Below are positions 1,332-57,778 of a DNA stretch of 64,000 bases, piece by piece. The position numbers were made by a program, and so were the translations under genes. Below the pieces are notes generated by a model. It worked only from the letters and a program-made list of their open reading frames with translations. It searched no databases and had not been told where the DNA came from. The first letter of the stretch is position 1; each line of letters begins with the position of its first letter. This stretch comes from a phage: sequence record PV467748.1; one strand, written 5' to 3'.

Positions 1332-1622
1332 TTAGCACATTGCCGAAGAGGAGATCCAAGCACCAACTGTAACGACGCCATTTTCAACTTCACCACCGTT
1401 GTTTTCAATTTCATCTTTAAACCACTGGGAGCATTCATAACCAACAGGGTAGTATGTACGTCCTGAGCCATAATCACCTGTTCCGAATTGAATACCGTAC
1501 TTATCGGCAATAGCTTCACATTTGGATTCGATGGTATCCACTTTATTCAGAAGAGCATAGATAGCCTTTTCTGCAGATTTCTCGTCGTTGTGTTCTGGGA
1601 TTTCGATTTCAATTTTATTCAT
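1332..1622 (-). CDS. small paralog family member A (C-terminus ...GAWISSSAMC)
   Basis: ORF track; ATGA overlap with upstream gene stop; ADKYG..GDYG..W.SSS.C motifs. Confidence 0.6.
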   Translation of the reverse strand: MNKIEIEIPEHNDEKSAEKAIYALLNKVDTIESKCEAIADKYGIQFGTGDYGSGRTYYPVGYECSQWFKDEIENNGGEVENGVVTVGAWISSSAMC

Positions 1623-1969
1623 GATTTACATTCCTTAATAAAGGTTTCAAGGTCATTACGTTTGGTTTGTTTTACATACTCATTATAATTAGCCATCTCT
1701 AAAGCATATCTCTTTTTACGCGGCTTGTTTATCCTATTGGTGTTGATAATATCCAAGACCAGAGGGATAAAGTATCCTATTAAAGCTGGAACCCAAATCC
1801 AGGCAAGGTTCAATTCAAATAGGTTTTGTGTCGTATCATTAACGACTCCACCAGCAATTAGTCCAACAAATCCGGCAATCGTACCAGTGACAAGTCCAGC
1901 GAATAAAGAAATAGCGATATCATAATCTGCTAATGCGTAACCAGGGTCGGTTTTACTAGGCTTATACAT
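1619..1969 (-). CDS. small membrane protein (two predicted TM helices)
   Basis: ORF track 1619..2005 trimmed to ATG (MYKPSK...) preceded by AGAGG RBS; hydrophobic stretches. Confidence 0.5.
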   Translation of the reverse strand: MYKPSKTDPGYALADYDIAISLFAGLVTGTIAGFVGLIAGGVVNDTTQNLFELNLAWIWVPALIGYFIPLVLDIINTNRINKPRKKRYALEMANYNEYVKQTKRNDLETFIKECKS

Positions 1970-5125: not shown

Positions 5126-5165
5126 TATTATTTCCTAAGTTAATTAACTTATCTATTTATTATGC

Positions 5166-5194
5166 CAAAAAGCCCCAACCTTTCGGAAGGGGCT
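5166..5194 (-). terminator. rho-independent terminator (variant of the GGCCC..GGGCC hairpin) downstream of the tRNA cluster
   Basis: Forward AAAAAGCCCCAACCTTTCGGAAGGGGCT; T-run on minus strand. Confidence 0.55.
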
Positions 5195-5244
5195 ATGCCT
5201 TGCGGCAACCTTGTCGGGGTTCCACCTGCTAAGGCAAGTGTTTG

Positions 5245-5576
5245 TACGAAACGCCGGGATTCGAACCCGGTTATTAAGTAGTTGACGCTACTCAATATTT
5301 TTAAAAGGCCATATCTCGACCATATCCGAACGTTCCGTCAAAAACGCTACTCGGCTTACGGCAAAGATATTTCCTCGAATCGATAATTCTGTGCGCCGTT
5401 TCTGCTGTGATGTAAGGGGACGTTAACAGATCGTAAAGATTTGTTAATGCCAGTCCTTACTCAGGGAACATCAGTCCGACGACTTACCGGTAGCGACCCG
5501 GTTTCTTGTTTGTTGCGCCGGTGAATGCTGGTAATCAGTCTTCATACGACGGCTTGACTATATAATAGTCTTCATT
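5245..5576 (-). ncRNA. untranslated region with tRNA-like 3' element; possible small stable RNAs (T4 species 1/2-like) or degenerate tRNA
   Basis: No ORF over about 330 nt; minus strand carries a perfect T-arm CCGGGTTCGAATCCCGG near 5251..5270 with pairable acceptor strands CGGAACG/CGTTTCG, but I could not fold a canonical D or anticodon arm. Confidence 0.3.
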
Positions 5577-5651
5577 TGGTATCCCGCCCTGGGATCGAAC
5601 CAGGACCGCAAACTTAGAAGGATCGTATGCTATCCATTACACCAGCGGGAC
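5577..5651 (-). tRNA. tRNA-Arg (anticodon TCT), CCA encoded
   Basis: Minus strand: acceptor GTCCCGC/GCGGGAT, T-arm CCTGG-TTCGATC-CCAGG, anticodon loop CTTCTAA, 3' ACCA; T4 encodes a tRNA-Arg(UCU); anticodon stem has one mismatch. Confidence 0.75.
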
Positions 5652-5656
5652 GTAGT

Positions 5657-5733
5657 TGGTGACCCAGACCAGATTTGAACTGGTAACCTTTCCCTTATGA
5701 GGGGACTGCTGCTAACCATTGAGCTACAGGGCC
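5657..5733 (-). tRNA. tRNA with CAT anticodon (Met or Ile-lysidine type), CCA encoded
   Basis: Minus strand: GGCCCTGTAGCTCAATGG...CCCCTCATAAGGG...GGTTCAAATCTGG...CACCA; anticodon loop CTCATAA. Confidence 0.75.
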
Positions 5734-5818
5734 TTAATTCTATTATGAAAGGCTCTTTGAGGGAAGAACCTTTGGTAATAGAGGGTATTAATGATAGAGT
5801 AATAATATCATATAATTC

Positions 5819-56849: not shown

Positions 56850-57778
56850 TGTATACTTTACAAGAATTTCAGAACCAGGCAATTAATATTGACCTACAGA
56901 GGAATAACCTGTTTAGTGTAGTATTTGCTACAGTTCCTTCTTCTAAATCCCAAGCGCTCCTCGACCAGTTCGGTGGAGCTTTATTTAACAATATCCCATT
57001 GAATAGCGATTTGTTTGGTATTACACAAGGAGAGTTGACCCAAGGTGTTACGACATTAGTGACAGCGGGCACTCAGAAGTTGATTCGTAAGTCAGGCATA
57101 AGTAAATATCTGATTGGAGCTATGTCATCCAGGGTTGTGCAGAGCTTACTAGGAGAGTTTGAAGTAGGTACATATCTGATGGATTTTTTCAATATGGCCT
57201 ATCCTACGGCAGGTCTTTTAGTCCACGCCGTTAAAATCCCAGATAATACTTTGAGCTATGAAATGGATTTGAACCACAACTCGCCTAACATCAAAATTAC
57301 CGGAAGAGAATATTCTCCATTGGTATTAAGCTTCCGTATGGATTCTGAAGCTGCTAACTACCGTGCTTTTAATGATTGGGTCAATAGTGTTCAAGACCCT
57401 ATTACACAATTAAGAGCATTGCCTGAGGATGTTGAAGCCGACATTCAAGTCAACCTTCATTCTCGTAATGGATTGCCACATACGGTAGTAATGCTTAATG
57501 GTTGTGTTCCAATGAGCGTATCTTCCCCGGAATTATCTTACGACGGTGATAACCAAATTGCTTCGTTTGATGTTACATTTGCTTATAGAAGTGTACAGAC
57601 AGGCGCAGTCGGTAAACAGGCTGCTTACGAATGGCTGGAAGATAAGATTATTAAAGGCGTCGCTGGGCTAAGTGAGAATAATTCACTGAGTTCTTCAGTA
57701 GCTAAATTAAGTCGACTTTCAGGAGCGGCTAGTGGATTAACAGGATTGGTTAATAGTAGAATATCGAGGTTGCTATAG
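56849..57778 (+). CDS. 54: baseplate tail-tube initiator gp54
   Basis: 309 aa (T4 320); synteny. Confidence 0.8.
   Translation: MYTLQEFQNQAINIDLQRNNLFSVVFATVPSSKSQALLDQFGGALFNNIPLNSDLFGITQGELTQGVTTLVTAGTQKLIRKSGISKYLIGAMSSRVVQSLLGEFEVGTYLMDFFNMAYPTAGLLVHAVKIPDNTLSYEMDLNHNSPNIKITGREYSPLVLSFRMDSEAANYRAFNDWVNSVQDPITQLRALPEDVEADIQVNLHSRNGLPHTVVMLNGCVPMSVSSPELSYDGDNQIASFDVTFAYRSVQTGAVGKQAAYEWLEDKIIKGVAGLSENNSLSSSVAKLSRLSGAASGLTGLVNSRISRLL

Follow-up and report, generated by a model that had tools for sequence, protein, structure and literature searches.

A gene-free stretch behind two phage tRNAs corresponds to the small stable RNAs D and C of bacteriophage T4

Introduction

What does a phage encode in about 330 nt that lie downstream of two tRNA genes, hold no evident gene and end in a perfect T arm? 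The question is raised by minus-strand positions 5576..5246 of sequence record PV467748.1, whose 64,000 nt, all of which were analysed, are called the window below. The initial annotation of this DNA had noted acceptor strands that could pair and had failed to draw a canonical cloverleaf, leaving a choice between tRNA-like small stable RNAs (such as species 1 and 2 of T4), a degenerate type-II tRNA and processing signals. The first of these proposals was right, the stretch being the orthologue of T4 rnaD and rnaC. The locus belongs to these two RNA families and is a rediscovery of something already known, as both RNAs have been catalogued in T4 since the 1970s and are annotated in the T4 reference genome; their roles in T4 are unknown (PMC3014915).

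With a probability of about 0.88, positions 5160..5733 of the minus strand belong to a Dhakavirus-like T-even phage and make up the distal part of its T4-type tRNA operon, reading tRNA-Ile, tRNA-Arg, a 65-nt RNA D-like module, RNA D, RNA C, a trailer hairpin and a terminator. Here we describe this arrangement, compare the two RNAs with their homologues and weigh what RNA C might do.

Results

Layout of the locus

The features of the region, in order of transcription, are as follows.

5657..5733, minus strand: tRNA with CAU anticodon, CCA encoded (ARAGORN; Rfam, 53.9 bits)
5577..5651, minus strand: tRNA-Arg (UCU), CCA encoded (ARAGORN; Rfam, 48.8 bits)
5512..5576, minus strand: extra module of 65 nt, lineage-specific, missing in T4 and JS98 (fold z = -3.15)
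5391..5506, minus strand: core of RNA D (T4 'species 2', rnaD), from identity to T4 rnaD, T4 annotation and paired homologues
5246..5382, minus strand: RNA C (T4 'species 1', rnaC), from T4 identity, covariance model and fold (z = -4.6)
5223..5240, minus strand: trailer hairpin CACUUGC-CUUA-GCAGGUG, immediately 3' of RNA C
5167..5194, minus strand: intrinsic terminator GCCCCUUCC-GAAA-GGUUGGGGC followed by UUUUU, from direct reading of the sequence

A blastn search against phage genomes places the region in the Tevenvirinae, with best matches of 98.9% to Dhakavirus-type coliphages such as UGJNEcP3 and QL01, and in T4 records rnaC and rnaD are annotated beneath the match. The alignment with T4 is collinear from tRNA-Arg to the terminator, over which the T4 reference lists tRNA-Arg, rnaD ('small stable RNA, species 2'), rnaC ('species 1') and a potential terminator in that order; transcription of the T4 cluster yields one precursor for the tRNAs and the species I and II RNAs, and stops after the species I gene (PMC2330249). 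The trailer hairpin is kept in T4 and also, despite the deletion of rnaC, in phages JS98 and MX01. A simple terminator scan missed the element at 5167..5194, which we attribute to U·U mismatches in its stem; the homologous T4 site is a potential terminator in the annotation of X03016.

Two tRNAs and the codons that they read

Only two tRNAs are found by ARAGORN in the whole 64 kb, both on the minus strand, and Rfam model RF00005 agrees on both, with nothing else reaching gathering thresholds. The earlier count of two clear tRNAs against eight in T4 is thereby borne out for the window, the T4 locus showing eight; the six further tRNAs of T4, together with segB, are all absent here. The CAU tRNA is identical to T4 tRNA-Ile (AF158101) at 74 of 74 positions, and the tRNA-Arg to its T4 counterpart at 75 of 75; the CCA end of tRNA-Ile is encoded in the window and not in the T4 copy. 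What had been overlooked is that the CAU tRNA is by this identity the T4 tRNA-Ile, a reader of AUA, and not a tRNA-Met. The T4 orthologue is an AUA reader after lysidine modification, so that the two tRNAs of the window read AUA and AGA. In relatives, automatic annotation names the CAU tRNA tRNA-Met. AUA and AGA are both rare codons in E. coli and occur at 12.1 and 6.2 per 1000 codons, respectively, in the ORFs of the window; this codon use, taken with their rarity in the host, offers a rationale for a tRNA set pared down to just this pair.

Reading frames, T arm and tRNA scanners

The ORFs of 5576..5246 (minus strand) are short (27-48 aa) and unconserved, and none of the frames, whichever the strand, stays open through all 22 homologues of RNA C or all 13 of RNA D, so that the description of about 330 nt without an ORF stands in the sense that there is no conserved ORF. 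Automated 'hypothetical protein' CDSs overlap the region in many GenBank records and imply that it encodes small proteins, for which the 27-48 aa ORFs of the window could be taken; against a frame that fails to stay open in all homologues, and substitutions in the helices that are compensatory, the probability of this reading is close to negligible.

At the end of the stretch lies the T arm CCGGG-TTCGAAT-CCCGG (5270..5254). The motif GGTTCRAWYCC is found three times in the window, against 0.18 occurrences expected from shuffles, and two of the matches are the T arm of RNA C and tRNA-Arg; with its canonical 5-bp stem and this excess of motifs, the T arm noted in the initial annotation is real. 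The third match (57265..57275) was set aside as chance, being antisense within a 309-aa ORF and having no stem.

Both scanners were run on the stretch and neither called a canonical tRNA in 5246..5576, where ARAGORN finds no gene and RF00005 has no match even at E up to 10. The best Rfam match there is tRNA-Sec (RF01852), at 17 bits (E = 2.1) against a gathering score of 47. It uses as internal acceptor partner ACGGAACG (5338..5331), which can pair in T4-type sequences; over the homologues this pairing is 84% kept with 0 compensatory changes, below the shuffle mean, and in 14 of 22 sequences one of its pairs is not formed. A tRNA-Sec identity was rejected, given the score below gathering and the 8-bp pairing with 0 compensatory changes. 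A tmRNA was likewise discarded, neither ARAGORN nor Rfam reporting one and no conserved ORF being available for a tag. Searches of Rfam with T4-type and Marfavirus-type copies of RNA C at E up to 10 gave no match, YrlA included. Of the two strands that can pair with the 3' acceptor strand, the 5' end of RNA C, CGAUUCG (5382..5376), is backed by covariation, and the internal strand ACGGAACG has no such support.

Fold and covariation of RNA C

RNA C is identical to T4 rnaC at 136 of 137 positions over its full length (AF158101 70908..71046, 139 nt; X03016 4741..4877, 137 nt), the sole difference being a C/U within a helix of the long arm; the two share the same predicted fold and the same place, with RNA D ahead of them and the trailer hairpin and terminator behind. 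In T4 both RNAs accumulate in stable form; RNAC has been shown by Northern blot, and RNAC and RNAD are classed as late RNAs (PMC9697503); compared by eye, the probe oligo of that study is the first 57 nt of the RNA C of the window.

The fold obtained from the single sequence (z = -4.6) has the same architecture as that given by RNAalifold. An acceptor stem of seven positions joins 5382..5376 with 5253..5247 (C-G, G-C, A-U, U·U, U·U, C-G, G-C) and contains a tandem U·U of invariant mismatches. At the position of a D arm, a 3-bp AGG/CCU helix bears an arm of about 63 nt with the apical loop UUUGACG (UUGACG being 5341..5336); there follow an A-rich linker, an arm of 9-10 bp with the 6-nt loop CGUCAA (5287..5282), the letters UAA, the T arm and the discriminator U5246. 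The acceptor and T-arm half is of tRNA type, with its 7-position stem, 5-bp T stem and 7-nt TTCRANY loop; a D arm and a 5-bp anticodon arm with a 7-nt loop are both absent from the fold. A tRNA-like untranslated region, as the initial annotation put it, is an apt description of the last 137 nt, and not of the remainder, which is not tRNA-like.

Comparison with related phages, which had been suggested as a check, returned conserved and covarying folds for both RNA C and RNA D. Across the 22 distinct homologues of RNA C, standard pairs fill 98.3% of pair cells and compensatory changes are seen at 24 of 44 pairs, against 36-52% paired and 3-7 compensatory pairs in slid controls; in the RNAalifold consensus, compensatory pairs number 21 of 39. 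Acceptor pair 3:70 covaries between A-U (7 sequences, T4-type) and G-C (15), while the 3-bp AGG/CCU helix and four of the five Watson-Crick acceptor pairs are invariant and thus draw no support from covariation. The two arms vary freely in sequence while pairing, and the top half, the junction letters and the two loops stay constant: AGGA, GGCCUU, AAAAU, both loops and the tandem U·U are invariant unpaired letters across at least ten T4-like genera or groups.

The loops UUGACG and CGUCAA form a 6-nt complement, paired in 22 of 22 sequences, and in the Marfavirus group they change together to UUGGCG and CGCCAA. Among the unpaired segments of RNA C a complement of this length has p ~0.016 by shuffles. 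These data, in which a single compensatory event is seen, support a predicted 6-bp kissing contact between the loops, which could also be intermolecular.

A covariance model built from the family scores RNA C at 145 bits (E = 2e-30), its only match in the window. The same model touched one real tRNA, the tRNA-Asn of JS98-type loci (L004, L020 and L028), at 15 bits, in a search set that included only three tRNA-array loci.

Two readings of RNA C as a tRNA can be judged on this evidence. A functional decoding tRNA, of suppressor or selenocysteine-like type and missed by the scanners, would account for the weak tRNA-Sec match (17 bits, E = 2.1) and for the T arm and acceptor stem; it is extremely improbable in view of the negative ARAGORN and RF00005 results, a candidate loop that has 6 nt instead of 7 and pairs with the other loop, and a Sec-type pairing without covariation. 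Slightly less so, and still very improbable, is a decaying pseudo-tRNA, that is, a degenerate type-II tRNA gene without a function of its own. Such an origin would fit the occurrence of RNA C in tRNA arrays and its possession of an acceptor stem, a T arm and, immediately ahead of the latter, a long extra arm, but decay sits badly with 98% pairing, 24 compensatory pairs and loops invariant over at least ten genera or groups, and with the 136/137 identity of RNA C from T4 to Dhakavirus next to 102/115 for the neighbouring RNA D. The degenerate type-II tRNA of the initial annotation describes the shape of RNA C, and perhaps its origin, though not its membership, since the D arm, the 7-nt anticodon loop and a scanner match are all missing.

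RNA C across T4-like phages

Homologues of RNA C came from Tequatro-, Dhaka-, Gapriver-, Karam-, Winkler-, Gelderland-, Kanagawa-, Moon- and Marfavirus, from the unclassified Citrobacter phage Ursula and from IMG/VR contigs, so that RNA C is present in at least ten T4-like genera or groups. Databases contain roughly 800 copies of it. Beyond the T4 and Dhaka groups it often lies between tRNA genes. It does so with tRNA-like spacing in Karam-, Gelderland- and Winklervirus and in Citrobacter phage Ursula; in myPSH1140 and CF-SP2 it stands between tRNA-Trp and tRNA-Gly with tRNA-like spacers, and in LC53 and Ursula tRNA genes flank it on both sides. Position -1 of RNA C is U, and the acceptor stem is followed by an encoded U-CCA in the Marfavirus copies and by U-ACA in the others.

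In JS98 and MX01, rnaC is cleanly deleted and RNA D kept; RNA C is therefore dispensable in at least some backgrounds. T4 deletions of the region are reportedly viable on laboratory hosts.

A host origin, or mimicry of a host RNA, was rejected, as blastn against 5,426 complete E. coli genomes returned nothing. When 241 million metagenome records were scanned for the motif, one more Marfavirus-like copy of RNA C came up, and the other matches, in GC-rich genes, were dismissed as chance. A scan that covered 185,579 species of bacteria and archaea, with one genome for each, pointed to ten places; against the RNA C model, nine of these give nothing at E up to 1 and the last reaches 14 bits (E = 0.37). 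The family appears to be confined to T4-like phages of Enterobacterales.

These placements bear on whether the two RNAs are cis-acting processing or stability devices, which punctuate the tRNA precursor and shield its 3' end, the stable RNAs themselves being functionless by-products. The location of both RNAs at the operon's 3' end, in T4 as in the window, beside the trailer hairpin and terminator, the clean loss of rnaC from JS98 and MX01 and the lack of any function found in 50 years (PMC3014915) speak in its favour. Other genera, however, place RNA C in the middle of a tRNA array, where protection of an end is needless, RNA D can follow straight after an ORF stop with no tRNA upstream, and unpaired letters invariant over at least ten genera or groups exceed the needs of a cleavage site; on balance we consider the proposal unlikely. 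The processing signals once suggested for this stretch are apt in so far as the RNAs are excised from the transcript of a tRNA operon, and fall short of a conservation that goes far beyond what cleavage sites need.

RNA D and an additional module

The core of RNA D matches T4 rnaD (AF158101 71053..71171, 119 nt) at 102 of 115 positions. Over the basal 45 nt and the last 25 nt the two hardly differ, and they share a two-hairpin architecture and a location between tRNA-Arg and RNA C; in the apical third the sequence is different and the pairing is kept. The 5' hairpin is ACCGG[GUCGCUA]CCGGU, and the second is long and irregular, closed by GUCGUCG/CGGCG-CAC. T4 RNA D ends in ...GCACCA, with an encoded CCA, whereas that of the window ends in ...GCACAGA.

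Over 13 distinct homologues of RNA D, 93.8% of pairs are kept and 9 of 30 show compensatory changes, against 31-48% pairing in slid controls. The near-invariance of the basal 45 and last 25 nt is in part a product of the search pattern, in which some of these positions were fixed; the apical third has undergone complete sequence turnover between lineages and is still paired. RNA D can also stand with neither tRNAs nor RNA C beside it, as where it comes immediately after an ORF stop. It is a separate structured RNA and is not tRNA-like.

A regulatory role by base pairing with phage or host mRNAs has been considered for RNA C, RNA D or both. The RNAs have been termed small regulatory RNAs that accumulate late (PMC9697503), and when the T4-like phage BW1 was evolved on the semi-permissive E. 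coli ECOR34, one SNP in rnaD appeared in each of the three lines (PMC12685909). Conserved single-stranded stretches that could serve as seeds are nevertheless few, the two conserved loops of RNA C complement each other, and, at the sensitivity of blastn, E. coli genomes contain nothing that matches the region. The balance makes such a role rather improbable.

Upstream of RNA D the window departs from T4. T4 RNA D begins 2 nt past tRNA-Arg, whereas the window has a 65-nt module and a 5-nt linker in front of RNA D, the distance from tRNA-Arg to the RNA D core being 70 nt in the window versus 5-7 nt in T4 and JS98. This lineage-specific module, which the initial annotation had missed, consists of the hairpin GACUAU-UAU-AUAGUC, the letters AA and a stem GCCGUCG...CGGCGCAAC, and its closing motifs match those of RNA D (AAG-CGUCG ... 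CGGCGCA). It is found in only 27 database records, all of them Dhakavirus-like and at least 98.6% identical. Ordinary local alignment of the module with RNA D is not significant (90 of 1000 shuffles), and collinear blocks shared by the two reach p ~0.01 when one long cheap gap is allowed. From its sequence, the module is likely to be a recent truncated duplicate of RNA D; its 27 copies differ too little for covariation to be read from them. It could either extend RNA D at the 5' end or form an RNA of its own, about 65 nt long.

Discussion

Processing and possible functions

The stacking of the 7-bp acceptor stem on a canonical T arm leads us to infer a cut by host RNase P, which would fall between U5383 and C5382. 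The 3' trailer of RNA C would then be trimmed to the discriminator U5246 and CCA be added, to give ...CGUUUCGU-CCA. The 137 encoded nt plus CCA would amount to 140 nt, which is the length reported for T4 species 1. RNA D would be what remains between the 3' cut of tRNA-Arg and the RNase P cut, trimmed to its closing stem, and the hairpin 5240..5223 together with the terminator 5194..5167 would end the transcription unit. RNase P cleavage and CCA addition are steps that the fold predicts for RNA C.

A tentative reading of RNA C, which we regard as possible, is that of a non-decoding tRNA mimic, which would occupy or divert a host or phage factor that binds tRNA. Such an RNA would keep the 'top half' of a tRNA (acceptor stem, T arm and CCA end), which is recognised by tRNA-handling proteins, and would have its anticodon half replaced by two arms joined through the 6-bp loop-loop contact. 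A related idea, which seems to us doubtful, casts RNA C as a dedicated mimic that T4-like phages of Enterobacterales retain, a decoy or sponge against some host factor directed at tRNA; it would be a non-coding anti-defence device. The acceptor/T-arm half with its invariant U·U would be the bait, and the kissing contact would lock or multimerise the body; conceivable targets include defence nucleases that attack the anticodon or the acceptor, and enzymes of processing or modification. If true, the decoy reading would explain the 50-year-old orphan 'species 1 RNA'.

What the comparison adds

The covariation-backed four-way fold of RNA C with its kissing loops and invariant U·U may be new, as may the spread of this RNA over at least ten genera or groups, often between tRNAs, and the Dhakavirus-specific RNA D-like module. 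For annotation, the results are of use in that many related GenBank records leave the stretch blank or carry spurious 'hypothetical protein' CDSs, and in that the AUA-reading tRNA-Ile is mislabelled 'tRNA-Met' in related records. The comparative data also sharpen the old question of what RNAs C and D do in T4, by supplying a structure and a set of invariant unpaired letters, and experimental handles are at hand in JS98 and MX01, which are natural knock-outs of rnaC, and in the natural variant with the extra RNA D-like module.

Comparison with other tRNA-like RNAs

The tRNA-like domain of tmRNA, the tRNA-like structures at the 3' ends of plant viruses and the bacterial YrlA RNA are tRNA-like domains of RNAs that do not decode. 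In such domains the top half of acceptor and T arm is kept for RNase P, the CCA-adding enzyme and other proteins, and the anticodon half is replaced. RNA C resembles them in both respects, with its top half kept and its anticodon half replaced, although it has no sequence or Rfam relationship to any of them. RNA C contains neither a tag ORF nor a pseudoknot in its acceptor. The acceptor stem is built from its own two ends, whereas the termini of YrlA make up a Ro-binding stem and the tRNA-like module is internal; its body, within a total of 137 nt, is built around kissing loops. In summary, RNA C is neither a tRNA or tRNA-Sec nor a member of these groups, and would work like the tRNA-like domains that they contain.

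Natural loss and variation of RNA C

In Dhakaviruses JS98 (L004 1318..1330) and MX01 (L005 1385..1400), rnaC, the counterpart of T4 species 1, is cleanly deleted, so that the trailer hairpin that otherwise lies just 3' of RNA C (CACTTGCC...) is joined straight to RNA D, the counterpart of T4 species 2; these two phages are natural rnaC knock-outs. Where the gene is retained, four homologous loci of Marfavirus type (L009, L012, L013 and L031) encode U-CCA after the RNA C acceptor stem and carry a compensated variant of the kissing loops, UUGGCG/CGCCAA, in place of UUGACG/CGUCAA; every RNA C copy outside this group has U-ACA after the acceptor stem. In Serratia phage LC53 the T loop is degenerate, with UGCAUCC replacing UUCGAAU (L010 1227..1243), and the fold of its RNA C is otherwise intact.

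Elsewhere in the window, a T-loop-like sequence, GGTTCAAATCC, occurs at 57265..57275; it is a chance match, antisense within a 309-aa ORF and bordered by no stem.

RNA D and its hairpin loop

At four loci (L021, L022, L029 and L019) RNA D follows immediately upon the stop codon of an ORF, with no upstream tRNA, and the RNA D of L022 and L027 has a third apical sequence, unrelated to the others, with pairing retained. The RNA D hairpin loop of the window, GUCGCUAC (5498..5491), is complementary to GUAGCG, a motif found twice in RNA C (5349..5344 and 5290..5285), each copy within a stem; this complementarity may be due to chance. The same loop is unchanged in phages that lack rnaC.

Many GenBank records (matches H46-H90 and H188-H218) leave rnaC and rnaD unannotated or overlay them with automated "hypothetical protein" CDSs; neither gene has a conserved reading frame.

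The CAU tRNA and codon usage

In the closest relatives, UGJNEcP3 among them, the interval from a 161-aa ORF to the CAU tRNA is longer than in the window by about 315 bp, an insert that includes a 267-nt hypothetical ORF and is absent at the following site:

5734..5818, minus strand, site of the insert difference, compared with 1512..1912 of homologous locus L003

In ORFs of at least 150 aa across the whole window, AUA occurs 12.1 times and AGA 6.2 times per 1000 codons, which amounts to 17.6% of the codons for Ile and 15.5% of those for Arg, respectively. These are exactly the codons decoded by the two retained tRNAs. The CAU tRNA (5657..5733), auto-annotated as tRNA-Met in GenBank records of relatives, is identical to T4 tRNA-Ile at 74 of 74 positions, and differs from it in that CCA is encoded in the window copy whereas the T4 copy lacks it.
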